Positions 8,436 to 30,228 of a DNA stretch of 40,565 bases are shown piece after piece; the stretch's first letter is position 1, and every line of letters starts with the position of its first letter. Source of the stretch: Phocaeicola dorei (GTDB lineage: Bacteria; Bacillota_I; Bacilli_A; RFN20; CAG-288). The DNA lies in assembly GCA_963622735.1 (NCBI GenBank), contig CAVFIT010000050.1:1-40565 (forward strand). Reading direction: 5' to 3'. Position numbers and translations under genes: made by a program. The notes beneath the pieces are model-generated. The model was not told where the DNA came from and did not search any database. It saw only the letters and a program-made list of their open reading frames with translations.

Positions 8436-8438
8436 AAA

Positions 8439-10133: not shown

Positions 10134-11176
10134 TATTTTTTACCTCCCATTCTAATTCTAGGGTCAACAAAGCCATATGATAAATCTACAATTAATGAGC
10201 CGACTAATCCAATCAAAACATAGAACATAGCGACAAATTGGAATACATCATAGTCTCTAGTTTGAATTGATTGTAAGAATAAAGAACCAACACCATTAAC
10301 AGCAAAGATGTTTTCAATAATCATTGAACCAGATAATACTGAAATAATTTCACCTAAAATCATTGGAAAAATAGGTACTAAAGAGTTTCTCATAGCATGT
10401 CTAATAGTAGCTTGACCTCTTGATAAACCTTTAGTTCTAGCTAATAACATAAAATCTGAAGTTAAAACTTCTGTTAATTCAGCTCTAGTATATCTAGCAA
10501 AACCAGCGATAGAGCCAAATGACATAGATAAAACAGGTAAAATCATTGATAAGAACATACTAGGTTCAAACCATGAGTTATTAAATGTCGCTCTAATAGC
10601 AGGTAAACATTTTAATTTATATGCAAATATATATTGTAATAAGAAAGCATAGACAAATGAAGGAACAGAAATAAATAACATAACAACTACTGATAAGAAG
10701 TTATCTTGCCATTTATTCTTTTTCAAAGCCATATAAATACCAAGTCCTAATCCTAAAGGAATAGAAATAATCATGGAATAAATATTAATTAAAATAGTTG
10801 GAGGTAATTGTCTTCCTAAGACTTCTAAAGGTGAAGTTAACCATGCGATTTTCCATGAATAGCCCCATCTAGATAATTCATGAACAGTACCATCACTACC
10901 CACGTATGTTGTTGGTACAAATAAATTCTTAATAAATGTGCCTAATTGTTGTAAAACTGGAACATTATAATAATTTCCATCACTGCCTTTATACATTCTA
11001 CCCATAGAAACTTGTGTAATGTAGAACATCTCAGGATCTTTACCAGGTGCATCTGCAGCTGTAATTGGTAACATTCTTACCAAAATGAAACACAAAATAA
11101 AGATAATTACAAAGGTCACAACAAGCAGTAGCAAACGCTGACCAATGTACTTTAGCATTTGTTTTAAATCTCTCAT
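10133..11176 (-). CDS. oppB: Oligopeptide ABC transporter permease OppB
   Basis: Canonical OppB N-terminus MLKYIGQRLL and EAA-type loop LARTKGLSRGQATIRHAMRNSL. The ORF-track start at 11194 is a TTG. I prefer the first ATG (11176, MRDLKQMLKY...); the ATG at 11158 is also possible. The stop overlaps the oppC start by 1 nt. Confidence 0.8.
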   Translation of the reverse strand: MRDLKQMLKYIGQRLLLLVVTFVIIFILCFILVRMLPITAADAPGKDPEMFYITQVSMGRMYKGSDGNYYNVPVLQQLGTFIKNLFVPTTYVGSDGTVHELSRWGYSWKIAWLTSPLEVLGRQLPPTILINIYSMIISIPLGLGLGIYMALKKNKWQDNFLSVVVMLFISVPSFVYAFLLQYIFAYKLKCLPAIRATFNNSWFEPSMFLSMILPVLSMSFGSIAGFARYTRAELTEVLTSDFMLLARTKGLSRGQATIRHAMRNSLVPIFPMILGEIISVLSGSMIIENIFAVNGVGSLFLQSIQTRDYDVFQFVAMFYVLIGLVGSLIVDLSYGFVDPRIRMGGKK

Positions 11177-11196
11177 TTTTCTTCTCTCTTCCAATT

Positions 11197-11225
11197 AAAA
11201 AACTTCATAAACTAAAGTTTATGAA
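11197..11225 (-). terminator. Intra-operon hairpin (attenuator/partial terminator) just upstream of the oppB RBS
   Basis: Perfect 9-bp stem TTCATAAAC (11204-11212) / GTTTATGAA (11217-11225) with a 4-nt loop, followed on the minus strand by GTTTTTT. The stem is AT-only, so it is weak. Confidence 0.4.
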
Positions 11226-11281
11226 AATATAATACTATTAAATGATAAATTTTTAAAGTATTTTAGATAAACTTTTAAATT

Positions 11282-11321
11282 AAAAAGAGCCTAATAACTT
11301 ATTTTTTGTTATTAAGCCCTT
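11282..11321 (-). terminator. Intra-operon terminator-like hairpin after oppA
   Basis: Imperfect inverted repeat GAGCCTAATAAC (11287-11298) / GTTATTAAGCCC (11308-11319). It has a 7-bp perfect core plus GC pairs beyond one mismatch, and is followed on the minus strand by TTTTT (complement of A11282-11286). Confidence 0.45.
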
Positions 11322-11357
11322 ATTTAAATCAAATATTCGAAAAATTTCGATTATTTT

Positions 11358-14051
11358 TTATTCTTCAGCGTTTTTGTATAATGTGGATAAATCGCCACCT
11401 TGTTTATTAACAAAATCGTTCCAACCACTATTAGTATAGTTAAATGTCATAAATCTAATTCCACCATAACCAACTAATGAGACATAGTTAGAAGAACCTT
11501 GTTCAACTTTGAATGATGTTAATGAAGAAGTACCTCTAGCAACAATAGGGATAGCTTCAAATCTAGAAATAATACCAGCTTCAAGACCAGCTAAGATAGT
11601 TAATTTCTTATCAGTAGATGTAGCTGAATCCATTTCTGTATACCATGTTTCAAATGATTTAGTTTCGCCCTCACTAATAACGCCATCACCATTAAGATCG
11701 ATATCTAATAAGACTTCGTTTTGTTTGCCTTTGAAACCATATTCACAACAAGAAGCAAAATCAGATTTACAATAGACTTCCATTAATCCATATGGGTTAA
11801 TTTGAGCACCACCCCAAATAGAGAAGATCATATCATAGTTACCATTTTTAGCAGAATCATAATAGTTTTCATCTTTAACTGTTGAAACTTCAATTGAAAC
11901 ATTAGATCCTAATTTTTCGTTTGCACCTTTTACAACATTCTTCCAATATTCGTTTAATCTTGTATTAGCAGCAATTGTATTAGCGGAAGTATTATCATAA
12001 ACTCTAAATTCGATAGCAATTTTATCATTTTGAGTTAAATGACCTTCTTCAGTTGAATTAAATTCATCTTGGAAAGCTTTAGCAACATATTCAATAGCTA
12101 AGGCTTGGTTATAACCATAACTTGATTCAGGAAGTGCTTTATCTTCACCAATAGTTGTACCACCTAATTTACCATAAACTTGGTTATAAACAGATTTACC
12201 TTGTTCTGTGTCTCTATATTTTTTACCATGTTCAACATCAGAAAGATATAAATCGTTTAATAAACCTGTAAAGGCTTTAGAACCAGCAGTAGCTTGAGAA
12301 GCAAAGTCTTTTCTATTAAGAGATAAAGATAAACCTCTTCTAAAATCAGTATTAGCAAGAATGGTTTTATTACCAGAGCCCATACTTGTTTGTCTTTCTA
12401 ATAATTTACTTCTATTAGAGTTAAATGAAACTTTTGTTGTATATGATTCATAAACTGTTGTTAATCTACCAGAGTTACCAAAGTCTTTCATATCATCAGC
12501 AGTTAAATCAATATCATCTAACTTACCTTGTTTAAATAACATCATAGCTGTTGTATGATCAGTAATAATTTCAGTGTTTAAACCTGTCATTTGGAATTGA
12601 CCAACATGTTTACCATCATTCCAACCATACCAGTTTTCGTTTTTAACTAAGTTAATTGTCTTACCTGATTCATATTTTGATAATTTATAAGGACCAAAAG
12701 CCATATAGTTATCAATTGAATTTGTGGCATAACTTGTTTGCTTTGTACCATTAGCTTGAGTTGTGGTTAATTTTTCATATAAATCTGTTTTTACTAACCA
12801 GTTACTAGATAAGGCAAACTTTAAATTTAAATCAGTGATTTCTTTAGCAAGATAGAATCTAATTGTATAATCATCAACTTTAACTAAGCCGACATTATCC
12901 CATGTCTTTGTACTTGTGTTATAAACAGAAACATAAGACATGATTTTATAACCTTCTGTTTCACCCCATTTAGCTGTAATACCATATCTATTTAAACCAG
13001 TAACAATAGTATTCATATCAGCTATTAATTTTGCTTTAGAATACTCATCTGCATTTGTTCCTGTAATAGAAGAGTTATTAGCATCTTTTCTAACATAAAT
13101 TTTATTAGAATCAAATTCTTCAAAATCTATATCAGGATGATTTTCTAACATATCTTTACTAACTGAGTTAGCGCCTTCTTCTTTAGCTTTTTCCCAATCA
13201 GATTTATGTTCATCATAATAACCTTGATGTTTAGCATAATAAGAAGTATTAGAATAACCTTGTAATAAGAAAGATTTAACAGCATCTGTAATTCTACTAG
13301 CGGCTAAATTATTAGCTGCATTATCTGTAATCATACTTTGTTGGAATAATAAGTAAAGATTAGATGTAGATTCACTTGAACCAGAAGCATCATTGAAAAT
13401 ATTTTTAACCCAGTCATTTTCTCTACCAATATTTAAATAGTAGACATCATCTTGACATGAATTTTCATCAAATTCACCATTTGTTTTATCAACATGGTTA
13501 TAAGCAGATTCAACTGTAGATCTACCAGATTTAAAATAATCTTCAGCATTAGCAATAACTAAATTACCATTATAATAGCTATCAGCACGATAGTTAGCAT
13601 ATTTAGGATCAAGTTGAAGTTTCATAGATTCAACATAATCATCAGCTTTAATAGCAGTACCATCTTGCCATTTAGCGCTTTGATTTAATTTAATATCCCA
13701 AATTAAACCTTCACCAACGTTACCATTATAGTATTTAGAAAGTGTAGCATCATCAATAGTAGATGGATCAACTGCAATAGGCATTTCAGCAGCCATTTCA
13801 GTAACAATTTCATAACCATCTTTTGTGGAATTTAAAATTGTGTCATATAAACCCATTTCTGTGTAACTAGTGATATAAGATTCATCACTAGTTTCCCAGT
13901 TATGTGTGTTCCATGTTTTAGGATTTGTAGAAATGTAGGTATTATAAACATAATCACCTAAATTAGAACTTGTATTATTACAGCTAGCTAAGCTAGTTGT
14001 AGAACAAAATCCTAATACTGTTAATAACGCTAAATAAGATTTTCTTTTCAT
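11358..14051 (-). CDS. oppA: Oligopeptide-binding lipoprotein OppA (family-5 solute-binding protein, enlarged)
   Basis: 897 aa. Lipobox SLAS-C-NN. Family-5 SBP hallmarks include MAFGPYKLSKYESGKTINLVKNENWYGW. It sits directly upstream of oppBCDF and is about 350 aa longer than typical OppA proteins. Confidence 0.8.
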   Translation of the reverse strand: MKRKSYLALLTVLGFCSTTSLASCNNTSSNLGDYVYNTYISTNPKTWNTHNWETSDESYITSYTEMGLYDTILNSTKDGYEIVTEMAAEMPIAVDPSTIDDATLSKYYNGNVGEGLIWDIKLNQSAKWQDGTAIKADDYVESMKLQLDPKYANYRADSYYNGNLVIANAEDYFKSGRSTVESAYNHVDKTNGEFDENSCQDDVYYLNIGRENDWVKNIFNDASGSSESTSNLYLLFQQSMITDNAANNLAASRITDAVKSFLLQGYSNTSYYAKHQGYYDEHKSDWEKAKEEGANSVSKDMLENHPDIDFEEFDSNKIYVRKDANNSSITGTNADEYSKAKLIADMNTIVTGLNRYGITAKWGETEGYKIMSYVSVYNTSTKTWDNVGLVKVDDYTIRFYLAKEITDLNLKFALSSNWLVKTDLYEKLTTTQANGTKQTSYATNSIDNYMAFGPYKLSKYESGKTINLVKNENWYGWNDGKHVGQFQMTGLNTEIITDHTTAMMLFKQGKLDDIDLTADDMKDFGNSGRLTTVYESYTTKVSFNSNRSKLLERQTSMGSGNKTILANTDFRRGLSLSLNRKDFASQATAGSKAFTGLLNDLYLSDVEHGKKYRDTEQGKSVYNQVYGKLGGTTIGEDKALPESSYGYNQALAIEYVAKAFQDEFNSTEEGHLTQNDKIAIEFRVYDNTSANTIAANTRLNEYWKNVVKGANEKLGSNVSIEVSTVKDENYYDSAKNGNYDMIFSIWGGAQINPYGLMEVYCKSDFASCCEYGFKGKQNEVLLDIDLNGDGVISEGETKSFETWYTEMDSATSTDKKLTILAGLEAGIISRFEAIPIVARGTSSLTSFKVEQGSSNYVSLVGYGGIRFMTFNYTNSGWNDFVNKQGGDLSTLYKNAEE

Positions 14052-14073: not shown

Positions 14074-15963
14074 TTAGTAACCAATACCAGTTGTACCAAT
14101 ATTGGTAATATCAAATGCCCATCTAGCAACTGTATAGGTTCCACTACTTGCAGACCATAATAAGTTTACACCGACATGGAATTCAGTATAAGCTTTGTCA
14201 ACTTTAGTAAATGAAATAGTAACTTCAGATGTTAAATCAGCCATACAACCAGCTTCAAAATAAGGATATGACCAATCACCTAAGAAATTCATTTGATTAT
14301 ATGTACTAGAATTAATTAAACCAATGATAAAATCAGAACAATATTTACCACTATTTAATGTAACATTTGTTGTGTTTTTATTTACAACAGAACTAGCAAT
14401 ACCAGCACTTTCAAATTCAACATCTGCAACAGATCTAGCACTTACATAAGTAAATACATCTTTATCACCAAGACTAGATGTAGTTGTAGCAGGTTCATCT
14501 AATAATGAATAAGATGTGTCACCTTTACTAATATTTGTAATAACATCAACTTTTGTTGAATCTTCTGAATTTTTATTATAAAACACGTAACCTTTCTTAG
14601 ATTCGTCTTCTTGAGTAGGATCAGTTAAAACTGAACCAAAGCCAGAAACTAATGTTTCTTCAACTGCATCTTGAGTGAATTTCTTTTTAGCTACAGTAGG
14701 TGTTGCAAATCTAGGTAATAAATATGCCAAATTTTCAGGAGTATATCCATCAGGTAATTCACTTACTTCTTTATAATTACCAAATGTTCCTGTTTCATCA
14801 TCAACAGTAGCTGTAAACCAACCAAATGTTTCTTCAATAGTATAGTTTTTACCACTAGCAATTGCTTTTAATGCAGTATCAATACCTGGATCAGTAATAG
14901 GATCAGGTTGACCTGTTGTAGAAATATAATTTTCAACTGCAGCAATACCAACTTTATCACCTACTTCTAAAATAGAAGCACTTAATAAGCCTGTTTTTGT
15001 ACCTGAAGTAATATATGTGAATATAACTGGAGCTTCTGTAACAACTTTTTTACCATCTTGATCATAATAAGATACAGGTTGATAATCAATTTCAGCATTA
15101 CCAATACCATATCCAGCAGCTTTAATATTAGTTAAAGAATATCCTAAACCATATAAGATGAAATTTTCAGTAGCTTCACTAGTTAATTGTAATATTTCTT
15201 TTCCATCATCATCTTTTGTTGTAACTGCATCAGTAAGAGCGGAAATTGGGAAATCAGCACCAACATAGAAATCAGTTAATTCATTACCTGTAGGACCTTG
15301 TTGAACATTTAAATCAGTGCCAAATCTATCTGACATTGTATAGTAATAAACTTCACTATCTGCGCCAAGTAAGTATCCGATTTTAGCACTACTTTGTAAA
15401 AAGCCTACATATTGTTCATTATGGACTGTACCTGTTTGATTACCAACAAATCCATTATCGTCAATAATAAATCCATTACTATCTTCAGCAAGATCTTCTA
15501 CTGTGTAATTTTTTACAACATCCTTTGTTTCTTCATAGAATCTCTTCTTTAAAGCAGAAACACCTGTAATAGTTAAATTAGCTCTAACACCTTCAGCTTG
15601 AACACCATTTTGAATTCTTAAAGAAATAGTGCCTTCACTAGTAACAGTTAATTTATGACCTGCTAAGCTAGCATAGTCACTACCACCAGTAAGAGTAACT
15701 GTATAGTTATTATCACTAGGAGTTACTTGTTGAGAATTGACATCAAATAAATTGATGTAATCATCAATACTAATTGTAGAACCAATAGTGACAACTGTAT
15801 CAGCGCTTTTATTAATTGTAATTCTTTGAACTGTAGCATCTCCACTAGTTTGGGATGTAGATGTAGAAGTAGTTCCACTAGAAGTAGTTCCACCACAGCT
15901 TGTTAATGTAGTACCTGTTAATAATAATGCTACACATAAAGGTAAGATAACTTTCTTTTTCAT
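14074..15963 (-). CDS. Orphan surface lipoprotein with an N-terminal Ig-like (Big_2-like) domain
   Basis: 629 aa. Lipobox TLTS-C-GG and a Thr/Ser tether (TTSSGTTSTSTSQTS). The segment VTIGSTISIDDY...HKLTVTSEGTISLRIQ...ANLTITG resembles a bacterial Ig-like domain. I see no catalytic motif in the rest. AGGAGAG RBS, 22 nt upstream of oppA. Confidence 0.75.
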   Translation of the reverse strand: MKKKVILPLCVALLLTGTTLTSCGGTTSSGTTSTSTSQTSGDATVQRITINKSADTVVTIGSTISIDDYINLFDVNSQQVTPSDNNYTVTLTGGSDYASLAGHKLTVTSEGTISLRIQNGVQAEGVRANLTITGVSALKKRFYEETKDVVKNYTVEDLAEDSNGFIIDDNGFVGNQTGTVHNEQYVGFLQSSAKIGYLLGADSEVYYYTMSDRFGTDLNVQQGPTGNELTDFYVGADFPISALTDAVTTKDDDGKEILQLTSEATENFILYGLGYSLTNIKAAGYGIGNAEIDYQPVSYYDQDGKKVVTEAPVIFTYITSGTKTGLLSASILEVGDKVGIAAVENYISTTGQPDPITDPGIDTALKAIASGKNYTIEETFGWFTATVDDETGTFGNYKEVSELPDGYTPENLAYLLPRFATPTVAKKKFTQDAVEETLVSGFGSVLTDPTQEDESKKGYVFYNKNSEDSTKVDVITNISKGDTSYSLLDEPATTTSSLGDKDVFTYVSARSVADVEFESAGIASSVVNKNTTNVTLNSGKYCSDFIIGLINSSTYNQMNFLGDWSYPYFEAGCMADLTSEVTISFTKVDKAYTEFHVGVNLLWSASSGTYTVARWAFDITNIGTTGIGY

Positions 15964-15984
15964 AATTTATATTCTCCTTTTTTA

Positions 15985-17844
15985 TTATTCACCAGTTGAT
16001 GAACTTGTTGTATTAGCAATACTTGGGCTAATTGCTAAATAATAATAACTACTTGATTTTAAAACTGTACATTCAATAGAAATAGTTTTACTAACTCCAT
16101 TAATTGTTACATTTTTAGAATAAATACCTGTAGTTGTATCATATGCATATCCAGCATCTATAAACTTATCATTAATACTTGTAACCATATTTTTTAATTC
16201 AGTAGTAGAAGATGTTGAATATGTTAAATAGTATGTATATTCTTCAGTAGTTGAATCTTGTGTTCCATTAACACCATATGTAGGATAAACTCCACCTAAA
16301 GTAGGAACATATGTATCTAATACTTCTGCAGTCATACCTTCACCAAATATTTCTTCAGGTGTAGCAACACCAGTTTTAGTAGAATTATAATATCCACAAG
16401 AATCTTCCCATGAATCAGACCACTTTAACTCATCGCAGTTATTTTTAACTGGTAAGTTAATAACTGAACCTGTACTAACTTTATTAATATTAGAATAAGT
16501 AATTTTATCAACAATTGTCATTGGGAATGCATATGAAGTACTATATTGATAATAAGTTTCATATGTATTAGTAAATGAAATTGTAGGATTTGTAGGATCA
16601 CTATTATCTAAAGTAATTGTAAATCCATCAAAACTAAACGCTGTTTCAATAGGTGAATAGTTTTTAGAATATTCTTGAACTGGGAAGACATCATCTCTAA
16701 ATACATAAACTGATTTAGTTGATGTAGATTTACTAGTATCTTTTTTAAATAAGGCACTAGATAAAGAATATTCAGGGAAGAAATCTTCTTTTAATGTAAC
16801 ACCTGTTGTTTCAGATCCATCTTGATAGAAATTTTCTTTAACTTTACTAAGTTGAATAACACCACTTTTAGTAGTTTGCATAGCGCTAGTAGACATTAAT
16901 GCTTTACCACTATCGTCTACACTATAAGAATATAATATAAAGTCTTTACCATCAGTTTTACCATCATATTCATATGTAGCAGATTGAGATTCTGTTTCTG
17001 AATATGTAATTGAAGCTTGTCTAGTAGAAACAAATTCAAAATTACAAGCTTGTAATGATTTAATAGCTGCATCTAAAGTTGCATCAGTGTCAGTTAATAC
17101 TGTAGGTAAGCTAGTTAAATTATCACCAAACTTAGTAAATTTACCACTGACACTAACATCTACATTAGCACCACTTGATGTAGTAGCTGCTTCATAAGTA
17201 ACATTACAACTAATAACATTATTTTCAACTGAGAAAGTACAAGCTTTAGCCTCAACAGATAATCCACCACTTAAGTTAACACCAAGTGCAATTAAAGCTT
17301 CTTTTTGGCTAGAAGAAACAGTTCTTAATTTAAATCCGCTTACTGCTTTTGTAAAATCGTCAATAGTAAGATTTGTAAATGGATTAATAAAACTTGTGTT
17401 ATCCCAACTAAGAGGTTTACCTGTAGATGCAGAAGTAAGAACTTTATTCTTAATTTGATTGTCTAAACCTAAATAAGTACTACAAGCATAACCAAGTTTA
17501 TTTTTTGTGTAATAAACTTTATCATATGCTGTATCTTTTGTAGGAACATCTCCAGTAGATGCAACAGGTTCATAACTAATAGAATTATAAACTCCATCAC
17601 TAATAGAAACATCGTTGAGATATTTTGAAACTGAACTGCCTGATTTTAAAAGTACAGTAGCTTCAAATAAATAATTTTGTTTCAATTGAGCTAAATAGGA
17701 TTCAAAGACAGCAACATCAGAATCTACACTAGAAGTAGAAGAAGATGTGGTAGAAGAAGTAGAATTTGAGTTATTTTGACCACCACAACTTGTTAATGTT
17801 ACGCCTAATAAAGCCAAAGCAATAATAGACTTAAATTTTTTCAT
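15985..17844 (-). CDS. Orphan surface lipoprotein, first gene of the opp transcription unit
   Basis: 619 aa. Lipobox TLTS-C-GG and a Ser/Thr tether (NNSNSTSSTTSSSTSS). The composition is beta-rich and Thr/Ser/Tyr-rich, with no motif I can assign. AGGAGAA RBS. Confidence 0.75.
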   Translation of the reverse strand: MKKFKSIIALALLGVTLTSCGGQNNSNSTSSTTSSSTSSVDSDVAVFESYLAQLKQNYLFEATVLLKSGSSVSKYLNDVSISDGVYNSISYEPVASTGDVPTKDTAYDKVYYTKNKLGYACSTYLGLDNQIKNKVLTSASTGKPLSWDNTSFINPFTNLTIDDFTKAVSGFKLRTVSSSQKEALIALGVNLSGGLSVEAKACTFSVENNVISCNVTYEAATTSSGANVDVSVSGKFTKFGDNLTSLPTVLTDTDATLDAAIKSLQACNFEFVSTRQASITYSETESQSATYEYDGKTDGKDFILYSYSVDDSGKALMSTSAMQTTKSGVIQLSKVKENFYQDGSETTGVTLKEDFFPEYSLSSALFKKDTSKSTSTKSVYVFRDDVFPVQEYSKNYSPIETAFSFDGFTITLDNSDPTNPTISFTNTYETYYQYSTSYAFPMTIVDKITYSNINKVSTGSVINLPVKNNCDELKWSDSWEDSCGYYNSTKTGVATPEEIFGEGMTAEVLDTYVPTLGGVYPTYGVNGTQDSTTEEYTYYLTYSTSSTTELKNMVTSINDKFIDAGYAYDTTTGIYSKNVTINGVSKTISIECTVLKSSSYYYLAISPSIANTTSSSTGE

Positions 17845-17958: not shown

Positions 17959-17986
17959 AAAAAAAAGAGGTTTTTTAAAAACCTCT
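17959..17986 (-). terminator. Rho-independent terminator of the atp operon
   Basis: Palindrome AGAGGTTT...AAACCTCT (17966-17986) overlaps the atpC TAG stop. On the minus strand it is followed by a run of 7 T (complement of A17959-17965). Confidence 0.7.
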
Positions 17987-18398
17987 ATAATTTATTGTTA
18001 AGTTTAAGCCTATTTAAAGCCTTTTTCAAAGAAATTTCAGCTTTAGTGTAAGCTTCACTTTCTTTATCTAAAACAGTTTTAAGACTATCTTCAGCTCTTT
18101 GTTTAGCATTTAAAGCTCTTTGATAGTCTAATTCATCTTGAGTTTCAAAAGCGTCAGCTAAAACATTAACCTGATTTTGACTTACTTGTAAAATACCACC
18201 TTCAATAGCGATAGGATAAAAATTACCATCTTTTTTGTAATTCATAATAGAAATTTCTATCACCCCTACTAAAGGAGTATGGCCTTTTAAAATACCTATA
18301 TCTCCATCAGAAAGAGTAAAATTTGCCATTTCTACATTATCTTCAAATTTTTTTCCATCTGGAGTGGTGATTTTAAGTAAGAAACTATTATCTGCCAT
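17985..18398 (-). CDS. atpC: F1 ATP synthase epsilon subunit
   Basis: 137 aa in the last position of the atp operon. Typical N-terminal beta-sandwich (LKITTPDG...) and a C-terminal helical hairpin. Confidence 0.9.
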   Translation of the reverse strand: MADNSFLLKITTPDGKKFEDNVEMANFTLSDGDIGILKGHTPLVGVIEISIMNYKKDGNFYPIAIEGGILQVSQNQVNVLADAFETQDELDYQRALNAKQRAEDSLKTVLDKESEAYTKAEISLKKALNRLKLNNKL

Positions 18399-18403
18399 TT
18401 AAA

Positions 18404-20679
<2,276 letters not shown>

Positions 20680-20691
20680 AGCATCTCCTAA

Positions 20692-22197
20692 TTATTTATA
20701 TGCTTTTGCAAATTCATTTATAGCGTTATTTAATCTTGTCTCATATTCTTTAGACATTTCTTTTTTAGTTTCAAGTTCACTAATTAAATCGCTATGATTT
20801 TTTTGAATATATAAATATAATCCATCTAAGAAAGGATGAACCTTATTTAAATCTAAATCATCTAAGTAATAATGTTGAGCAGCAAATAATTCAATTACTT
20901 GTCTAACAAATGACATTACTTGATATTGACCTTGTTTTAATAATTCCATTAAAACTTTACCATGAACTAATGTCTTTTTAGTAGAAGCGTCTAAATCAGA
21001 ACCGAATTGAGCAAAAGATTGTAATTCTTGATAGTTAGCTAGTTCAATCTTTAAAGATTTAGATACTTGTTTAACGCATTTAAATTGAGCCGCAGAACCA
21101 ACTCTTGAAACTGATAAACCAGAATCAACAGCAGGACGTTGACCAGCGTTAAATAAATCACTAACTAAGAAAATTTGACCATCTGTAATTGAAATAACAT
21201 TAGTAGGAATATAAGCTGAAATATCACCTGATTGAGTTTCAATAATAGGTAAAGCGGTAATAGATCCACCACCGTGTTCTTGATTTAATCTACAAGCTCT
21301 TTCAAGTAATCTAGAATGAATATAGAAAACATCACCTGGATAAGCTTCTCTACCAGGAGCTCTTTTTAAAAGTAGTGATAATGTTCTATAGCTAACAGCA
21401 TGTTTAGATAAATCATCATAAACAATTAAAACATCTTTACCTTGTTCCATCCATTCTTCTGACATAGTAACCCCAGAATAAGGAGCAATGTATTTTAAAG
21501 GATCAAGTTCAGCAGCATTAGCAGCAACTATAGTTGTATATTCCATAGCGCCTTTTTCTTTTAATTTATCATACACTCTAACAACTGTAGATGTTTTTTG
21601 GCCTATAGCTACATAAACACAAAGTACATTTTTACCTTTTTGATTAATAATTGTATCAATAGCAATAGCAGTTTTACCTGTTTGTCTATCACCAATAATT
21701 AATTCTCTTTGGCCTCTACCAATAGGAATCATAGCATCAATAGCTTTAATACCAGTTTCTAAAGGAGTGTCGACTGACTTTCTAGTCATAACACCTGGAG
21801 CGATTCTTTCAATAGGTCTACTTTTATTAGTTTTGATTTCACCTAAACCATCAATAGGTTGACCTAAAGCGTTAACTACTCTTCCAAGCAATTCATCACC
21901 AACAGGAACTTCAACTACTTTACCAGTTCTTTTAACAATATCACCTTCGTGAATGAGTTTATCATTTGAGAAGATAACAGCGCCAACTGAATCTTGGTTA
22001 AGATTCATAACCATACCAAAAACATCATTAGGGAATTCTAATAATTCACCTAACATTGCGTTTTGAAGACCATAAACATTAGCAATACCATCACCAACTG
22101 TAACAATTTTACCTATATCAGTAGAAACTGTCTTTTGTGAATAATTTTTAATTTGCTGCTTAATTAAGGCAGAAATATCATCTGTTTTAATTGCCAT
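20692..22197 (-). CDS. atpA: F1 ATP synthase alpha subunit
   Basis: 501 aa. Walker [19 protein letters not shown] and the conserved block [21 protein letters not shown]. Confidence 0.97.
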
Positions 22198-22736
22198 TAG
22201 TTAGTCCCTCCTTTTAATTCTTGTTTTAAAGATAAGATTCTTCCTTGTATAGAACCATCATATACTTTGTCATCTAATATAACTTTGATACCACCAATAA
22301 TTGATGGATCAACTTTGTTTTCAAGTTCAATCTTATAACTTAATTTCTTTTCAAGTGCAGATTCAACATTACTTATTTCTTGCTTATCTAATTTAGTAGC
22401 AGAATATATAATTCCTGATTTAATTCCTATTGAATTATTAGCCATTTTTATAAATTCTCTAAAAATATAAATAAGTCTATAAGCTCTATTGTTACTACAT
22501 ATTACCTTAATAAAAGTTTTAAGGTATTCAATATCAACTATTTTAAATGCTTGATCAATAATTTCTTCTTTTTCAGACTGATTTAAAAATGCAGAATCTA
22601 GAAGTTTTATAAATTCAGGATTCTCATTTAAAGATTGATAAATAACTTTAGCTTGTTGTAAGTACTCTTCAACATTATTTTGTTCAAGAGCAAGACTTAG
22701 TAAAGCTTGTGCATATCTTGTAGGTATTGTTTCCAT
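22197..22736 (-). CDS. atpH: F1 ATP synthase delta (OSCP) subunit
   Basis: 179 aa. Assigned from its position between atpF and atpA and the OSCP-like start [12 protein letters not shown]. The start of atpA overlaps its stop by 1 nt. Confidence 0.85.
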
Positions 22737-22738
22737 AA

Positions 22739-23281
22739 TTATTTACTATCTTTAGAAATATCATCTACAAAAGAATCAACCATCTTTCTTGTATCATCTT
22801 TACTAACTTCTCTTTCAAGTAATTGACTAGAAGCTTGTAAAGCGATATCGACAATTTCTTGTTTGCATTCTTCAATAGCTTGTTTCTTTTCAAGTTGAAT
22901 ATCTCTTTCAGCTTGTTCGCGTTTTAATGCGAGTTCTTGTTTTAATTCTTCTTGATATCTTAGTTTATCTTCTTCAGCTTGTTTTTTGCCTTGTAAAATA
23001 ATTTCAGATGCTTGTTTTCTAGAATTATTTAAGTTTTCTTCAGCTTGTTTATTATTTAAATCAGCTTCAGCGTTTAATTTTTGAGCATTATCAAGATTAG
23101 AATCAACAAATTCTTTTCTTTTTTGAATATAGTTATGAACAGGTTTATATCCTAACTTAATAACTATAAAAACTAAAACAAAAAAAGCTAATAATTGAGT
23201 TATAAAAGCCCAAAGATTTGGAATTAATTTACCATTAATTTCAATAGTTGGTACATCAGCTAAAATATTTAAAAAACTCAT
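22739..23281 (-). CDS. atpF: Fo ATP synthase b subunit
   Basis: 180 aa. One N-terminal TM helix followed by a long charged helix (AEENLNNSRKQASEII...), in the expected operon position. Confidence 0.88.
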   Translation of the reverse strand: MSFLNILADVPTIEINGKLIPNLWAFITQLLAFFVLVFIVIKLGYKPVHNYIQKRKEFVDSNLDNAQKLNAEADLNNKQAEENLNNSRKQASEIILQGKKQAEEDKLRYQEELKQELALKREQAERDIQLEKKQAIEECKQEIVDIALQASSQLLEREVSKDDTRKMVDSFVDDISKDSK

Positions 23282-23304: not shown

Positions 23305-23532
23305 TTACATAACAAGACACATAATAGCGATAACTAAACCGTAAATACCAGTAGTTTCGTCTAAAGCACAACCTAAAATCATAGTTGTACGAAGTTTAGA
23401 ATACATTTGAGGGTTTCTTGCCATACCATCGATAGCGTGAGAACAAATAAAGCCTTCACCAATACCAGAACCTAAACCGGTTAATACAGCAATACCAGCA
23501 CCTATATACTTTAATCCATCCATATTTTCCAC
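23305..23532 (-). CDS. atpE: Fo ATP synthase c subunit (proteolipid) with Na+-type ligand signature
   Basis: 75 aa helical hairpin. GxGxGxG (G19-G25), loop R39-N40-P41, and helix-2 carboxylate E59 in ALDETTGIY. See the finding on this gene. Confidence 0.93.
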   Translation of the reverse strand: MENMDGLKYIGAGIAVLTGLGSGIGEGFICSHAIDGMARNPQMYSKLRTTMILGCALDETTGIYGLVIAIMCLVM

Positions 23533-23545
23533 CTCCTTTCAAATA

Positions 23546-24334
23546 TTAATTAGCACCTTCCTGTTTAAGGAATACTTGATCATCTTCTTCATCTTGAGGA
23601 CCTTCTTGAGACACCCAAATCATAGTAAGAACACAGAAGACTAATGTTTGAATTAATCCACTGAATAAGTCAAAATACAAATGTAACCATGGTGTAATAA
23701 ATGGAGCTACAATCACTGAATTTAATCCTGGTACAGAAATAAATGCAAATATTGCAGCAGATAGTTGTTGTAAATAGAAATAAACTAATGTCATTAAACA
23801 ATAACCAACTAGAGCATTACCAAATAAACGTAATGTAATTGATAATAAAGGAGCCCACATTGATAATAAGTTAATTGGTAAAAATACCGCGATAGGATCT
23901 ATATATCTTTTAAAATATCCCCACTTATTAGTTTTAATAGCAGTGGCATGAATCATTACAAAAGTAATTAATCCTAGACTTAATGGAACTGCTAATTCAG
24001 TTAACGGGTTAGGTAAACCAGTTAAACCGATGATGAAGCAGAAGAATATATACATAGCAAGAGCCATTATATATCCAGCAAACTTTCTCCATCTTTTACC
24101 CATAATCTCGATTACTTGATTATCTAATAATTCAACAAACGCACAAATTAGAGTAATAAATTTATTTTTATCTTTCTTAGTAGGATCTTTTTTACGAAAC
24201 ATGAACCATATCAAAACACTAAATAAGGCGACAAACCCCATTACTGCAAAAGACATGATCATTTCACCACTATAAGTAGTTTCACCCCATTTAAGCGAAT
24301 TAGAAAAATCTAACGCCATTAAATTTAAACTCAT
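23546..24334 (-). CDS. atpB: Fo ATP synthase a subunit
   Basis: 262 aa polytopic protein. Conserved stator arginine in LSITLRLFGNALVG. Confidence 0.92.
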   Translation of the reverse strand: MSLNLMALDFSNSLKWGETTYSGEMIMSFAVMGFVALFSVLIWFMFRKKDPTKKDKNKFITLICAFVELLDNQVIEIMGKRWRKFAGYIMALAMYIFFCFIIGLTGLPNPLTELAVPLSLGLITFVMIHATAIKTNKWGYFKRYIDPIAVFLPINLLSMWAPLLSITLRLFGNALVGYCLMTLVYFYLQQLSAAIFAFISVPGLNSVIVAPFITPWLHLYFDLFSGLIQTLVFCVLTMIWVSQEGPQDEEDDQVFLKQEGAN

Positions 24335-24340
24335 TTTTTA

Positions 24341-24784
24341 TTAATCCTTATTTTCATTTTCTTGAATAGGTTGAATGTTTTCTTCTTCAACTGGTTTAAT
24401 TAATGATAATATGCCAGTCATAACAAAAAAAGGAACACCACTAGCAAGAATATTCATATAAATTATCTTATTTTGATCAGCACCTTTAGTTAAGTAAATA
24501 ACTAAAGTAGATAAACCAATAGCAGCAAACATCATTAAAAAACGAATGAAGTGTCCTGCACCTAACATAACCATTTCACTTTTTTTAGCATCAGGTTTTA
24601 ATCCATCACCAGATTTAATTAAAAGTACTAAATTTACACATGCACATACCCCACTAATAGCTAAACTAGTAGCGATGTAATAATTATTCCAAATTAAACC
24701 TATTAAACTAATAGCAATTAAAACAATAATTACTAACCAGTAAATTAAGCATGATTTTGTTAAATAAGGTAATTTTTTTATCAT
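24341..24784 (-). CDS. AtpI-like small membrane protein, first gene of the atp operon
   Basis: Four hydrophobic helices immediately upstream of atpB. The ORF-track start (24829) is a TTG that runs through the likely promoter. I use the ATG at 24784 (MIKKLPYL...), which is preceded by AAAGGAA. The AtpI assignment rests on position only. Confidence 0.6.
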   Translation of the reverse strand: MIKKLPYLTKSCLIYWLVIIVLIAISLIGLIWNNYYIATSLAISGVCACVNLVLLIKSGDGLKPDAKKSEMVMLGAGHFIRFLMMFAAIGLSTLVIYLTKGADQNKIIYMNILASGVPFFVMTGILSLIKPVEEENIQPIQENENKD

Positions 24785-24809
24785 CTTGTCATTCCTTTCG
24801 ACCCACTCT

Positions 24810-24815
24810 ATTATA
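24810..24815 (-). promoter_or_regulatory. Candidate -10 element of the atp operon promoter
   Basis: The minus strand reads TGTATAAT (TATAAT at 24815-24810), about 25 nt upstream of the ATG at 24784. The -35 is weak (TTATCT with a 17-nt spacer). Confidence 0.35.
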
Positions 24816-24868
24816 CATTCAAAAAACAAAAAAGATAAAGAAAAATCGCATTTTAAAAATTTATTTTT

Positions 24869-24969: not shown

Positions 24970-25638
24970 TTATACTGTAGGTAAACTAATATTAGGCATT
25001 GAATATTCATAATTCAATGTAATTGTACATGTATATGATGCTTTAGTTAAATATTCAAATTCTAGTTTAGCGATTTTTTCAACACTATCAATTTTTTGAA
25101 CACTACCTTTTATAGTCACATCACTATTTACATCACTTATTTCTTTGGTAAAAAATGCTGTAGTATCATCTTTTAATACTTTTGAAGTAAATGAAGAACT
25201 AGTTCCACTAATTTCTTGTAACACTTGGAAATTATAACTAATAGAAAATACTTTAATTGTATTAGTTTCATCTTTAATAGAATACTTACCATCATCACCT
25301 AATGTATATGTTTTACTAGGTGAATAATATATATTAAACGCTTTAGTTTTACTATCACTTCCAGAAGGATTATCAACACTATTTATAATAGCTTTTGTAC
25401 CATAATTATGTAAGATATTTGACTCAGTATTTACTTCATAATTAGAATAAGTAGAAGAAATAGTCTGCCCTTTGTTAGAAATATTAGTAGAACTTCTAAT
25501 AATATAAGGACTTTTCTCAGCTTGTATAATAGTTTGTTTAATATCAGCTATACCTGAACTAGAATTATTATTACCTCCACATGAAGTCATTGATACTAAT
25601 AATAATGATAAAGGTAATATTACTAATTTCTTATTCAT
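24970..25638 (-). CDS. Orphan small lipoprotein
   Basis: Start reassigned to the ATG at 25638 (MNKKLVILPLSLLLVSMTS-C-GGNNNSSSG), which is preceded by AGGAGGG. The ORF-track TTG at 25674 overlaps the upstream gene. No assignable motif. Confidence 0.7.
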   Translation of the reverse strand: MNKKLVILPLSLLLVSMTSCGGNNNSSSGIADIKQTIIQAEKSPYIIRSSTNISNKGQTISSTYSNYEVNTESNILHNYGTKAIINSVDNPSGSDSKTKAFNIYYSPSKTYTLGDDGKYSIKDETNTIKVFSISYNFQVLQEISGTSSSFTSKVLKDDTTAFFTKEISDVNSDVTIKGSVQKIDSVEKIAKLEFEYLTKASYTCTITLNYEYSMPNISLPTV

Positions 25639-25654
25639 AATCTTTTCCCTCCTT

Positions 25655-28600
25655 TTATAAATTAATATCAACAATAGAACTTGAAGAAGAATAAATATCT
25701 TCTATTTGTTTAATATATTCTTCATATTGAGTTTTACATTGATCATATTTTGCTTTTAAATCAGCAACACTAGTTTTATCTTCACTAGATAAATACTTAT
25801 AAACATTACTTGCTTTATATAAAGGATATCTATAAGTAGAGACATTGCCATCTAACATATCAATATATTGTTTATAGTCAGCTGTAGTAAATGATAATTT
25901 ACTCTCATCTTTTGATTTAACTATAGGTCTAGATAAGCTAGTATCAAATGACCAATCTAAGTTAGTATCTAAATCTCTTAAGAAAGTATTTTTCTCCCAC
26001 CATGATTGTGAACTAAAATTAGCATAAGAAATAGAATCACCAAAACTAATAGCTGTTTTTGTTGGAGTAATAGAATCACCTAAATCTGAATAATCTTCAG
26101 CGATATAATTAACATTAGATCCACTATAAGAAGATGTATTTGCATCATGAGAACCAATAAAGTTATTAAAGTAAGTAGGTTGAGTCATAGATTTAATTTT
26201 TAAATCTGAAAGAATGTTATTAGCAACAATCTTGCCACCTTCTTTATTATGTCCAGCAATAGCACCTACTTCTTTTTTAGCAAATGTTACTTCTAATAAA
26301 ATAACTGCATTATTAATATTTGTCTTTGCTCTATTTCTACCAATTAAGCCAACTGCAGCTCCTTCAGTATTAATTTTTCCTTGAGCGTAAATATTTTCCA
26401 TATTTACTGTGACATCTTGAGAAGAACCACCTACACCACCAGTAAGTAAACCAACATATTTATTACAATCGATTTCACAATCAATAATATTTACATTTCT
26501 AACATTAGATACAGTTTCATCTCCTCTAAATCTTCCTACTAAAATAGCGTAATATCCTTCACTACCTTCAGCATCAGGATTTGTAATAACTTTACTATTT
26601 GTAACATTAACATTTTCAATAGTACCGCCAAACACTTGACCAGCAAGAATACATGAATCACCAGATCCAGAAGTATAACAAGAATCAAAATTAATATTTT
26701 TAACTGTTCCTTTTAATTCTTTAAATAATGCTGTTTTAGGATCAGTAGAAACTAATAAAAGATTAGAAATAGTATGCCCTTGTCCATCTAATACACCTGC
26801 AAATGAAATAGCAGTATCAGCTGAAAATTTCCAATCATAAGAAGAACAATCAATATCATTAATTAATCTAAATGTTGAACTTTTTGTAGATTCATTAATA
26901 GTCATATCATATAAATCTTCTACACTAGAAATATTAACAACTGTTGAAATCTCTTTAGCTGAATAGATAATAGAATCACCATTAGTAGATGTAAGTAGTA
27001 AATATGCATCATACTCTTTAGAAATATCTATCAAGTTTGTATCAATAGAAATAGTAGAAGATGTAAGTACAATATTATTACCTCCATCTACTTTACCATC
27101 TACATTAGCGTTAGATTTAATATCACTAGCACTAGGAGTTGTACTATTTTTATTTAATATTAAATAAGATGCACTAACATTAGCTTGATATACATTTCCA
27201 GATAAAGTAATTCTAGCTTTAGTAGTATAAGTAGAATCTTGTTTTAAATAAGAGGCTTTAAAATTAACTATACTAGCACTTTCACCTACCTTAGATTCAT
27301 AAAAATACTGTTTAACTTCTTTTATTTCATTATATTTAGTTAATGTAATAGTAAATGTCTTTGTAGTTAATTTATATGCACCTACATTTTCTTCAACTAA
27401 TATTGGCTCACTAACAGTATAATCACTTCCTTTTGTTAATATCTTTGTATTATCAAATCTATTTTCAATTTTAAATTCAGGAATTGTATTAAATGTAGCT
27501 GTATCGCCTTTATAATAATAAACTTCTTCAGGATAATCTTTAACTAAGCCGATACCTAAATCTCTATTAGGGTTAGAAATAGTCTCTTCTTTAGGTAGAT
27601 TTACAATATTATCAAACTTAATATCTGAAATATATGTATAACCATTTTTAGTACCACTTAAAATCTTAATTTTTAAAGAATCAAGTATTTTAGAAGAGTT
27701 TCCATTAGACATTACACCTGCACTAGTGTTATATTCTTTTAATCCTGCAGTTATTTCTTTGTAACTAGAATTAGAAAAATCATATTGATATAACTTAACA
27801 TAACCAGATAATGTAAGTTCTACTCTATATTTATTCCATATACCTTCTTTAGGAGCAGATTCATATGTGTAATCTTGACTATTATAAACAAACGAATTTC
27901 CACTACTTGATAAAGTCATACCAAAGGCTTTATTTGTTCCACCATTTAACGAAATTTCAACTCCGTTAGTATCTCCTTCAAACATGGTATAAAATTCAAA
28001 CGCAACTTTTTTAACACCGGTTGAATCTGTACTAGTTACATTTGTATTATTAGCATTTATTTTTGTGGTATATACATTAGCGGTAGATAATTTACCTGAT
28101 TTAATTTCAAGCATTTTCTTATCTTTTATAGGTAAATTAACATTATTTACTACACTTTCTTTAATATTAGCTAAACCTAAATTACCACTAGCAGTGTATT
28201 TAAAATAGTTACCTATATCAATACCTGTTTTATATGAATTAAAATCTTCATTAAACGCTAAAGGTAAATCCTCTTCTTTAGAATTAGAAGAATGTAATAC
28301 TGTTAAATCAAATGTTTTATCAACACTATATTCTTCACCATTTAATTCATAAGTAATAGTAGCAGTTAATCTAACATTTTTATCTACTAAACTATCTTGA
28401 CTTACCCTACCTATAATATCACTTACTTTACCTGAGTCAGCTTTAGATACTTCTATTGTAATAACACTTGTATCAGAAGAAGCCCATGTAATAGAAGTAG
28501 AATATAAACCAGTATGAGGTAATCTAATATCACTTACTATCTTAGTTGTATCAATATTTAACTCTAATAATTCATAAGCTTTAGTAAGTTCATCAGGGTT

Positions 28601-28714
28601 TTGACTAGTTGCAGTAGCATAATTTATATTCTTTAAAATTGATGAAGAAACATTGTTTCCTCCAATAAGAGAAAAACATGTTGCTAAACATACAATAATT
28701 AATGATTTTTTCAT
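25655..28714 (-). CDS. Large secreted/surface multidomain protein with a GLUG-type repeat region
   Basis: 1019 aa with an N-terminal signal/anchor MKKSLIIVCLATCFSLIGG. An Ig-like segment (IRLPHTGLYSTSITWASSDTSVITI) resembles the degenerate bacterial Ig domains of Firmicute surface proteins. Residues ~150-370 look like a ConA/LamG-type beta-sandwich, by inference. FAGVLDGQGHTISNLLL is followed by periodic rungs (VKNINFDSC, IENVNVTNS, VRNVNIIDC, VGLLTGG, VGLIGRN, VGAIAGHN), as in GLUG-motif proteins. AGGAGGG RBS, 14 nt after the upstream stop. Confidence 0.6.
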   Translation of the reverse strand: MKKSLIIVCLATCFSLIGGNNVSSSILKNINYATATSQNPDELTKAYELLELNIDTTKIVSDIRLPHTGLYSTSITWASSDTSVITIEVSKADSGKVSDIIGRVSQDSLVDKNVRLTATITYELNGEEYSVDKTFDLTVLHSSNSKEEDLPLAFNEDFNSYKTGIDIGNYFKYTASGNLGLANIKESVVNNVNLPIKDKKMLEIKSGKLSTANVYTTKINANNTNVTSTDSTGVKKVAFEFYTMFEGDTNGVEISLNGGTNKAFGMTLSSSGNSFVYNSQDYTYESAPKEGIWNKYRVELTLSGYVKLYQYDFSNSSYKEITAGLKEYNTSAGVMSNGNSSKILDSLKIKILSGTKNGYTYISDIKFDNIVNLPKEETISNPNRDLGIGLVKDYPEEVYYYKGDTATFNTIPEFKIENRFDNTKILTKGSDYTVSEPILVEENVGAYKLTTKTFTITLTKYNEIKEVKQYFYESKVGESASIVNFKASYLKQDSTYTTKARITLSGNVYQANVSASYLILNKNSTTPSASDIKSNANVDGKVDGGNNIVLTSSTISIDTNLIDISKEYDAYLLLTSTNGDSIIYSAKEISTVVNISSVEDLYDMTINESTKSSTFRLINDIDCSSYDWKFSADTAISFAGVLDGQGHTISNLLLVSTDPKTALFKELKGTVKNINFDSCYTSGSGDSCILAGQVFGGTIENVNVTNSKVITNPDAEGSEGYYAILVGRFRGDETVSNVRNVNIIDCEIDCNKYVGLLTGGVGGSSQDVTVNMENIYAQGKINTEGAAVGLIGRNRAKTNINNAVILLEVTFAKKEVGAIAGHNKEGGKIVANNILSDLKIKSMTQPTYFNNFIGSHDANTSSYSGSNVNYIAEDYSDLGDSITPTKTAISFGDSISYANFSSQSWWEKNTFLRDLDTNLDWSFDTSLSRPIVKSKDESKLSFTTADYKQYIDMLDGNVSTYRYPLYKASNVYKYLSSEDKTSVADLKAKYDQCKTQYEEYIKQIEDIYSSSSSIVDINL

Positions 28715-28728
28715 TTTCTATTTCCCTC

Positions 28729-30228
28729 CTATTTTGTTTCAAATATAGCACCTAAAGGTGTACCATTTTCACCCATTGTATAAAATGGTGAAGTGGATTT
28801 AACTTTTAAGAAATCACCTAAATTAACTGAACCATCTTTATTTCTTAAATTTTTATGAACATCATTAATTGTAGTAGCAGGTACTCCTTGAGAAGCCATT
28901 TCTTGAGGAGTAGTTACACTTACAAATGGATTTTCATAAGTAGAAGAAGTTCCTCTATATGTAGTAGATGAATAATCAATCTTTGTTGGCGCTCCAATTA
29001 CTAAATTAGATAAACCATTATAGAAAGCTGAATAAGAACCACTTCCTTTATATTCATCTTTAGAATTAGCAATATGAGATTGTAAAGTAATAGGATTAAT
29101 TACATCCCCATAACAATAAGATAAGCAGTTCTTATAATAGTTAATACTAGTTTGAGCATCTCTACATGTTGAAAAATTATATCCATCTTCATCTCTAGTA
29201 CCATTGTTATAAGCTGTACAATTTTCAAAACGAATAGTTCCTGGATTTGAGTTATCTGTAAATCCTGTAGCCATATTATTAAAAGCTACACAATTAATTA
29301 CACTATGAGGAACAGAAATTTGCTCACCACCTAATTTAAAACCATTACCATCTGAATTAGATGTACCAATTCCTTGACTTGTCATACCATTATTAAAGGC
29401 TACACAATTTTTTATAGTGACTGGTCCAATAGCTCCAGATTCACCTTTTGTATATAAATCCCAACCATCATCAACATTGTTATAAGCAATACATCCATCA
29501 AACACATTACCTACACCAGTAGTAAGTTTACATGCAAATCCATCACTATCTTCACCAGAAGGGTCATGGTTATCATGAGAAGTACAATTTAAAATCGTAT
29601 TATATGAAGGCCATTGATCCATACTTTCATAACTAGAACCTGCTCTACCAAGTTGAAGACCAGTATCTTGACAATTATTAATATCAAGATATTCAACAGT
29701 ATTATAATTACCACCTATATAAACACCATTATCACCAGCACCATATACTTCAAATCCTTTAATATGCCAGTAATCTGAATTTAAAGTAATACCTCTATTA
29801 GAAGAAGCAAATCCCATACTAGAAAAATCAAACTTAACTTTTACATAATCCCCATTACTATCTTTAACTGGTTCAATTAACTTTTCTTCATCAAAAGATG
29901 TAGCAAGTACATTATGTTCTTTTTCATAGTCTTTAGAGATAGATAAAGGATAAGAATATTTATAAGTACCTTCTAATAAATAAATCTTTCCACCTTTATC
30001 AAGTCTTGAAATAGCAGCTTCAAAACTTAGTGGTGAATCTTTACTACCAGTATTATCTACTTTGCCATTTGTAGAAACATATATTTCTTTTAAAAACACA
30101 ATACCTGAATCATCACTTGATATTTGACTTGTTGGATTAGTTGAAGTAGATGAACCTGAGTTATTAGTGTTACATCCACTTACTAATAATGTTATTACCA
30201 TTAGAGGTAGTATTTTTTTAATCTTCAT
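28729..30228 (-). CDS. Surface lipoprotein with a right-handed parallel beta-helix, pectate-lyase (PL9)-like
   Basis: 499 aa. Lipobox LLVSG-C-NTNN plus a Ser/Thr tether. DUF1565-like start IYVSTNGKVDNTGSKDSPLSFEAAISRLDKGGKIYLLEGTY. Periodic rungs ILNCTSHDN, FDGCIAYNN, IKNCVAFNN, VINCVAFNN, FENCTAYNN and YKNCLSYC. Acidic/basic blocks DSDGFACKL, VDDGWDLY and DGNGFKLGG are typical of PL9-type lyases. The fold call is stronger than the family call. Confidence 0.6.
   Translation of the reverse strand: MKIKKILPLMVITLLVSGCNTNNSGSSTSTNPTSQISSDDSGIVFLKEIYVSTNGKVDNTGSKDSPLSFEAAISRLDKGGKIYLLEGTYKYSYPLSISKDYEKEHNVLATSFDEEKLIEPVKDSNGDYVKVKFDFSSMGFASSNRGITLNSDYWHIKGFEVYGAGDNGVYIGGNYNTVEYLDINNCQDTGLQLGRAGSSYESMDQWPSYNTILNCTSHDNHDPSGEDSDGFACKLTTGVGNVFDGCIAYNNVDDGWDLYTKGESGAIGPVTIKNCVAFNNGMTSQGIGTSNSDGNGFKLGGEQISVPHSVINCVAFNNMATGFTDNSNPGTIRFENCTAYNNGTRDEDGYNFSTCRDAQTSINYYKNCLSYCYGDVINPITLQSHIANSKDEYKGSGSYSAFYNGLSNLVIGAPTKIDYSSTTYRGTSSTYENPFVSVTTPQEMASQGVPATTINDVHKNLRNKDGSVNLGDFLKVKSTSPFYTMGENGTPLGAIFETK

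Follow-up and report, generated by a model that had tools for sequence, protein, structure and literature searches.

The window (the whole stretch of DNA analysed here, 40,565 nucleotides) encodes a single F-type ATPase c subunit that has a counterpart for every side chain of the Fusobacterium nucleatum Na+ site, and we therefore predict that it forms part of a Na+-coupled F1Fo enzyme with two carboxylates in each ion site. We assign a probability of roughly 70% to this Na+-coupled reading as a whole, in which the enzyme most likely hydrolyses glycolytic ATP to expel Na+.

The open reading frame at 23305-23532 on the minus strand comprises 75 codons from a GTG, and its product is MENMDGLKYIGAGIAVLTGLGSGIGEGFICSHAIDGMARNPQMYSKLRTTMILGCALDETTGIYGLVIAIMCLVM. 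The GTG chosen by the ORF finder (23530-23532) overlaps a Shine-Dalgarno sequence. An ATG lies 9 nt downstream (23521-23523), and most homologues begin there (MDGLKY..., 72 aa). The real start of atpE is almost certainly this ATG at 23523, with a product of 72 aa. The codons that the original prediction cited, those of E26 and E59, are at the positions it gave, but its residue numbers, which are counted from the GTG and kept here, are probably 3 too high; from the ATG, the site residues would be E23, D55, E56, T57, T58 and Y61.

23305..23523, minus strand: atpE, F-type ATP synthase c subunit, probable true coding sequence of 72 aa from the ATG (PF00137, TIGR01260 and homologue starts)
23532..23536, minus strand: Shine-Dalgarno GGAGG, 8 nt upstream of the ATG and overlapping the ORF-finder GTG (direct sequence reading)

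The protein is a member of Pfam PF00137 (73.3 bits against a gathering cutoff of 24) and of TIGR01260 (58.6 bits, cutoff 43.95). An AlphaFold2 model built from 50 homologues is a helical hairpin (helices 2-36 and 38-71, pLDDT 94.1), which Foldseek matches to solved c subunits with TM scores of 0.85-0.94. The hairpin, the polar R-x-P loop and the carboxylate in the middle of helix 2 are all present. The models for the N-type (alternate) F0 subunits c and a both score far below their cutoffs, TIGR03322 at 28.2 bits (cutoff 130.85) and TIGR03306 at 52.5 bits (cutoff 302.1). An N-type (alternate) ATPase is ruled out by these scores, with a delta/OSCP gene also present in the operon, and a V-type K subunit is ruled out by the NCBIfam scores. 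The F1Fo ATPase is canonical and has this protein as its single c subunit, in a homo-oligomeric ring. It contains three cysteines (C30 in GEGFIC, C55 in LGCAL and C72 in IMCLV), which is unusual for a 72-aa proteolipid; many relatives carry these cysteines, the first of them being found in 81 of 121 sequences.

The c gene has the a-subunit gene on one side and the b-subunit gene on the other. The atp operon to which it belongs is complete and co-directional, with the order atpI-B-E-F-H-A-G-D-C, all on the minus strand, and has no other c gene. The other elements are listed from the head of the operon.

24341..24829, minus strand: atpI-like small membrane protein with a TTG start at the operon head (weak PF03899, 21.1 bits against a cutoff of 25.1, and operon position)
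23546..24334, minus strand: atpB, a subunit (stator) (PF00119, 118 bits; aligns to chloroplast, PS3 and mycobacterial a subunits)
22739-23281, minus strand: b subunit (ORF and Pfam)
22197-22736, minus strand: delta subunit (ORF and Pfam)
20692-22197, minus strand: alpha subunit (ORF and Pfam)
19813-20679, minus strand: gamma subunit (ORF and Pfam)
18404-19798, minus strand: beta subunit (ORF and Pfam)
17985-18398, minus strand: epsilon subunit (ORF and Pfam), with the full C-terminal helical domain of PF00401
17966..17986, minus strand: terminator-like hairpin followed by a T-run, directly after atpC

Alignment and translation identify the essential stator arginine of the a subunit as R169, within LRLFGN (codon 23828-23830). 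When compared with the PDB, the a subunit matched only H+ enzymes (chloroplast, mycobacteria and PS3), at low similarity. Its C-terminus (23546-23610) is a hydrophilic acidic tail, SQEGPQDEEDDQVFLKQEGAN, lying outside the Pfam ATP-synt_A match, which covers residues 30-242; an acidic tail of this kind gave a weak alignment with the C-terminus of the mycobacterial a subunit.

The ion site of the c subunit is formed by residues in both helices, as follows.

23452..23478, minus strand: helix-1 glycine motif G19-x-G21-x-G23-x-G25-E26-G27, containing the carboxylate E26 (ungapped phmmer and MAFFT)
23410..23418, minus strand: cytoplasmic loop R39-N40-P41, the alignment anchor, RQP in the reference proteins, with R and P invariant
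23341..23361, minus strand: helix-2 ion-site motif D58-E59-T60-T61-G62-I63-Y64, in which E59 is the coupling carboxylate
23455-23457, minus strand: E26 (GAA), equivalent to Glu32 of F. nucleatum and Gln32 of Ilyobacter tartaricus
23359-23361, minus strand: D58 (GAC), at the position of Ala64
23356-23358, minus strand: E59 (GAA), equivalent to Glu65
23353-23355, minus strand: T60, equivalent to Ser66
23350-23352, minus strand: T61, equivalent to Thr67, which holds the water
23341-23343, minus strand: Y64 (TAC), equivalent to Tyr70

These equivalences were originally drawn from an ungapped alignment anchored on R39-N40-P41, and the same register is recovered by phmmer, MAFFT and Foldseek, with no shift in any of them. 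In a phmmer search of all PDB chains, the four best distinct sequences were Acetobacterium woodii c1, A. woodii c2/3 (4bem), F. nucleatum (3zk1) and I. tartaricus (1yce), and the three best matches are the three solved Na+-binding F-type rings. The alignments are gapless with an offset of +6 (query residues 6-73 on 12-79 of 3zk1, and 9-73 on 15-79 of 1yce), and that to 4bem is also ungapped. As grouped in this comparison, the query and the three Na+ rings have the motifs GIGEG and (A/D)E(S/T)TGIY in common. The ligand columns are also kept by MAFFT in the alignment with I. tartaricus, F. nucleatum, Bacillus PS3 and spinach chloroplast that had been proposed as a check, and the register holds for Escherichia coli and Yarrowia as well, with E26 under E32/Q32 and E59 under E65. 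The H+ enzymes in this alignment are without the polar ligand set, PS3 having N/V-E-A-L, spinach Q/M-E-A-L-T and E. coli I/V-D-A-I. Foldseek likewise ranks 4bem_A, 3zk1_A and 1yce_A as the top three for the AlphaFold model (TMq 0.85-0.87, rmsd 1.4-1.5).

The window protein thus has the sequence features of the Na+ class, namely Glu at position 32, equivalents of Glu65, Thr66, Thr67 and Tyr70, and a five-glycine motif. Glu at position 32 together with the complete Na+ ligand set is also the sequence signature of the two-carboxylate subtype, and the F. nucleatum-like site that was first proposed is borne out at this level, GIGEG being identical and E26 falling at Glu32. The claim of a Na+-type c subunit therefore stands as to register, side-chain ligands and nearest relatives by sequence and fold, and its ion specificity is predicted from these. 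The glycine motif had been understated as GxGxGxG and is in full GxGxGxGxG (G19, 21, 23, 25 and 27). This helix-1 packing motif is associated with c11 rings (PMC3692424), and by analogy the ring of the window enzyme may possibly be a c11.

The ligand positions are conserved among relatives. In an alignment of 50 sequences that are 56-96% identical to the window protein, only 9 of the 72 columns show no variation; among these are the five positions with a ligand or stabiliser role (E, E, T, T and Y) and the R and P of the loop. The hypergeometric probability that five pre-specified columns are all invariant is about 9e-6, indicating that the ligand pattern is not due to chance. Among the 120 best homologues, the helix-1 Glu is found in every one and the helix-2 pattern E-T-T...Y in 119, the exception having Asp at the coupling Glu.

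The nearest homologues belong to uncultured gut Bacilli of low GC that are related to Mollicutes and Erysipelotrichia. A scan with one genome per species yielded 46 related loci. Almost all of them are from uncultured Bacilli of the gut or rumen, and the labels of relatives include Ca. Scatoplasma merdavium, Firmicutes bacterium CAG:449, 'uncultured Mollicutes', Erysipelotrichaceae, Anaeroplasmataceae and Ca. Alloenteromonas. A few related atp loci are labelled 'uncultured Prevotella sp.', 'Bacteroidaceae bacterium', 'Gemmiger formicilis' or 'Slackia isoflavoniconvertens', which are probably mis-binned contigs or wrong taxonomic labels in sets of metagenome-assembled genomes (MAGs). Databases give the relatives generic names ('ATP synthase F0 subunit C', 'F-type H+-transporting ATPase subunit c') despite the full Na+ ligand set, and the label 'F-type H+-transporting ATPase' may mislead metabolic reconstructions.

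The window has a GC content of 28.5%, within a range of 26-30%, and reads in the standard code. Its remaining content comprises an Opp-type ABC transporter, large Ser/Thr-rich lipoproteins, an oleate hydratase, a MATE exporter, nucleotide and isoprenoid kinases and housekeeping genes; we found no Na+ pump, respiratory gene or cell-wall gene within the 40 kb. On either side of the atp operon (14074-17844 and 24970-28714, minus strand) lie large genes whose products have lipoprotein-like N-termini (LTSCGG, MTSCGG) and linkers rich in Ser/Thr. Those on the 3' side (14074-15963 and 15985-17844) encode 629 and 619 aa and those on the 5' side 234 and 1019 aa, and the gene upstream of the 5' pair (28729-30228) encodes a Pel9A-like beta-helix. 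The products of the genes flanking the operon resemble the surface proteins that are typical of Mollicutes-like or Erysipelotrichia-like genomes. The Opp-type peptide transporter (4879-14051, minus strand) has unusually long components, with ATPases of 585 and 599 aa, permeases of 564 and 353 aa and a binding protein of 897 aa; in each ATPase subunit the ABC domain is matched as two stretches. The oleate hydratase (45-1838, minus strand) is of the MCRA family (PF06100, 704 bits) and adjoins a TetR regulator, suggesting fatty-acid hydration in a probably lipid-scavenging organism. The MATE-family transporter (PF01554; 32312-33769, plus strand) is a candidate consumer of sodium-motive force, as Na+ coupling occurs in some MATE subfamilies.

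In the F. nucleatum structure, the ligands of Na+ are Glu32, the carbonyl oxygen of Val63, Glu65, Ser66 and a water that Thr67 and the carbonyl oxygen of Ala64 keep in place, while Tyr70 and Ser66 lock Glu65. Glu32 keeps its proton during the whole rotation, with no co-transport, and equals the I. tartaricus Gln energetically; no H+ pumping was detected for the enzyme (PMC3692424). By this model, each inter-subunit site of the window ring would hold one Na+ through five ligands, E59, E26, the T60 hydroxyl, the L57 backbone carbonyl and a water, the last being held by T61 and the backbone carbonyl of D58. E26, on the inner helix, would be expected to remain constitutively protonated and to act like the I. 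tartaricus Gln, and Y64 would lock E59. Na+ would exchange at the interface with the a subunit, where R169 would displace it. All c-rings intrinsically prefer H+, and coupling is set by the Na+/H+ ratio of the habitat (PMC3692424). In the low-GC gut anaerobe proposed here, related to Mollicutes and Erysipelotrichia, glycolytic ATP would be hydrolysed and Na+ driven out to create a sodium-motive force, the reverse being possible in principle. Operation as an ATP-driven Na+ pump is plausible. The low GC of the window, the Mollicutes-like gut relatives and the precedent of Acholeplasma are consistent with a pump in a fermentative, wall-less host.

The enzyme might instead be Na+-coupled and work physiologically as an ATP synthase, driven by the sodium-motive force of a Na+-pumping decarboxylase or Rnf as in F. 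nucleatum, Propionigenium modestum and A. woodii; we consider this possible, at well below even odds. The full C-terminal helical domain of the epsilon subunit (PF00401) points in this direction. Such a domain is usually linked to inhibition of hydrolysis. Against a synthase are the absence of any encoded Na+ pump from the 40 kb window and the nature of the relatives, which are small-genome gut organisms of Mollicutes-like lineages. The F-ATPase of Mollicutes is generally taken to run hydrolytically, which also counts against synthesis. Every Na+ enzyme of the F-type that has been characterised structurally (F. nucleatum, I. tartaricus, P. modestum, A. woodii and C. paradoxum) makes ATP from sodium-motive force (PMC3692424), and Acholeplasmas have been reported to possess an Rnf complex (PMC4221730); however, the A. 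laidlawii enzyme was characterised as a Na+-transporting ATPase, to judge from the title cited in PMC4221730.

It is improbable that the ring is promiscuous and translocates both Na+ and H+ under physiological conditions, like the Methanosarcina acetivorans A1Ao enzyme, with D58 tuning the balance. The gut lumen has abundant Na+ and a near-neutral pH, and these conditions favour Na+ occupancy of an F. nucleatum-like site. The reading draws on M. acetivorans itself, which has two predicted glutamates and is coupled to both ions (Schulz et al., PMC3692424), and on the finding that Na+ enzymes translocate H+ in the absence of Na+ (PMC2359735).

Coupling to H+ despite the ligand set, in a site that binds two protons (three with D58) and translocates one, is quite unlikely. 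Such a mechanism has been proposed for the two-carboxylate rings of Streptococcus pneumoniae, Mycobacterium tuberculosis and the Burkholderia pseudomallei N-ATPase. Two-carboxylate H+ rings do exist (PMC3692424), and the B. pseudomallei ring was predicted to bind Na+ but measured as H+-selective (PMC5376962). Also, a third carboxylate, D58, near the site could raise its proton affinity, and pipelines name relatives of the protein 'F-type H+-transporting ATPase subunit c', although this is a generic label only. However, the two-carboxylate H+ rings miss some of the polar residues (in B. pseudomallei, Met stands at the Thr67 position), whereas the window protein has every ligand, with ETTGIY as in A. 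woodii, and matches F. nucleatum. The ligand positions are moreover invariant across the clade, which is not expected of dispensable positions and counts against H+ coupling.

Within the preferred Na+-coupled, two-carboxylate site, only the Asp immediately before the coupling Glu has no counterpart described so far, and it could shift the pKa or the selectivity of the site. D58 had been called unusual. This is correct on a broad scale, Asp occurring at this -1 position in 4 of 443 hairpins (~1%) of a sample clustered at 50% identity, all four in related single- or double-hairpin Bacilli-like sequences; the background is from a representative search whose top 150 were mainly multi-hairpin, probably archaeal-type proteolipids, as domain scores add up. 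Among near relatives, however, it is a clade-wide trait: the 120 best homologues have D at this position in 66 cases, T in 25, A in 17, V in 9, C in 2 and S in 1, and the residue switches even between sequences more than 80% identical. The ready exchange for T, A or V speaks against D58 being an essential ligand, and it probably modulates the site instead of defining it.

We estimated the orientation of D58 from a helical wheel, taking as reference the outward-facing residues with which yeast subunit c contacts oligomycin (Leu57, Glu59, Leu63 and Phe64). The -1 side chain lies about 172 degrees from the outer, oligomycin-contact face, and by this estimate D58 probably faces the inner helices, beside the structural water. 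A mutual-information scan of the -1 column gave mostly phylogenetic signal, from which one exclusive association stood out. Specifically, Lys or Arg is found two residues after the helix-1 Glu (E+2), a position deep in the membrane, in 23 near homologues, which form 5 groups at 80% linkage. Each of the 23 has Asp at -1, and 0 of 54 non-Asp sequences have K/R at E+2, in counts that ignore phylogeny. This suggests a buried ion pair between the two helices in those relatives. In several of the K/R-bearing sequences the glycine motif is degenerate, similar to GxAxAxGxA, and their rings could differ in size. At E+2 the window protein carries Phe (F28, codon 23449-23451), so D58 is without a basic partner; it is probably protonated or hydrogen-bonded.

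It is doubtful that D58 acts as a functional third carboxylate, either ligating Na+ directly in place of the water (compare Gln65 of the Enterococcus hirae K-ring) or resetting the pKa or selectivity of the site. If it did, the protein would represent a 'three-carboxylate' form of the rotor ion site, for which no structure has yet been described. The -1 Asp is the one feature of this protein able to teach something new about ion selectivity in rotor rings.

If the Na+ prediction is true, widespread uncultured low-GC gut Bacilli run their membrane energetics on Na+ and not on H+. Organisms of this group have been found in human, chicken, rabbit, horse and rumen samples. Models of their transport, pH and osmotic homeostasis and drug sensitivity would be affected, and the 'H+-transporting ATPase' labels assigned by pipelines would be wrong for the group.

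Among known systems, the F. nucleatum c11 ring (3ZK1/3ZK2, PMC3692424) also consists of single-hairpin F-type c subunits and aligns to the window protein without gaps at 47-49% identity. The two share GIGEG with Glu at position 32, the five-glycine motif and, in helix 2, the coupling Glu, Ser/Thr, Thr and Tyr. The window protein differs in having Thr for Ser66, Asp for Ala64, RNP in place of RQP in the loop, a shorter N-terminus and three cysteines, and its host belongs to a low-GC Bacilli lineage. The Na+ logo with Gln/Glu32 and the classification of F. nucleatum as Na+-coupled date from 2008 (PMC2359735). As the two-carboxylate Na+ site was thus recognised in 2008 and solved in 2013, the window protein adds to its distribution and not to its mechanism.

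A. woodii c2/c3 (4BEM) and the I. tartaricus c11 ring (1YCE), the best and fourth-best sequence matches in the PDB, have the same Na+-site architecture. The helix-2 motif ETTGIYGL is identical in A. woodii, and Thr at the Ser66 position is the A. woodii state. Unlike the window protein, both have Gln on helix 1 (a one-carboxylate site) and Ala at -1, and A. woodii has in addition a fused c1 subunit, whereas the window operon has a single c gene. The B. pseudomallei N-type c17 ring (PMC5376962) resembles the window protein in its two carboxylates (Glu30 and Glu61) and in the Thr and Tyr of helix 2. It differs in having Met at the second Thr position and in its measured H+ selectivity, and also in operon type, since the window operon contains delta and its c subunit fails TIGR03322. 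This precedent demonstrates that sequence-based predictions of Na+ coupling can fail, though in a ring without the full ligand set.

Our literature search on Tenericutes, Rnf and sodium returned nothing relevant. Table 1 of Mulkidjanian 2008 lists bacteria with V-type ATPases, including Acholeplasma and Eubacterium dolichum, with a column for the presence of an F-type enzyme; we rejected it as evidence for Na+ F-ATPases in these organisms because its header defines V-type carriers. The supplement of that study gives only a V-type K subunit for A. laidlawii, classed as H+. In three Acholeplasma species, the motifs of AtpE led to the inference of an F1Fo-type Na+ ATPase (PMC4221730), and 22Na transport by the purified (Na+-Mg2+)-ATPase of A. 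laidlawii is cited in the same paper. The relatives of the window protein differ in being gut MAGs (Ca. Scatoplasma, CAG:449 and those labelled Erysipelotrichaceae or Anaeroplasmataceae). Like the window, Acholeplasma (PMC4221730) combines a low-GC, Mollicutes-related host and the standard genetic code with Na+ coupling inferred by the same c-subunit motif logic, and the role proposed for its enzyme is likewise that of an ATP-driven Na+ extruder.
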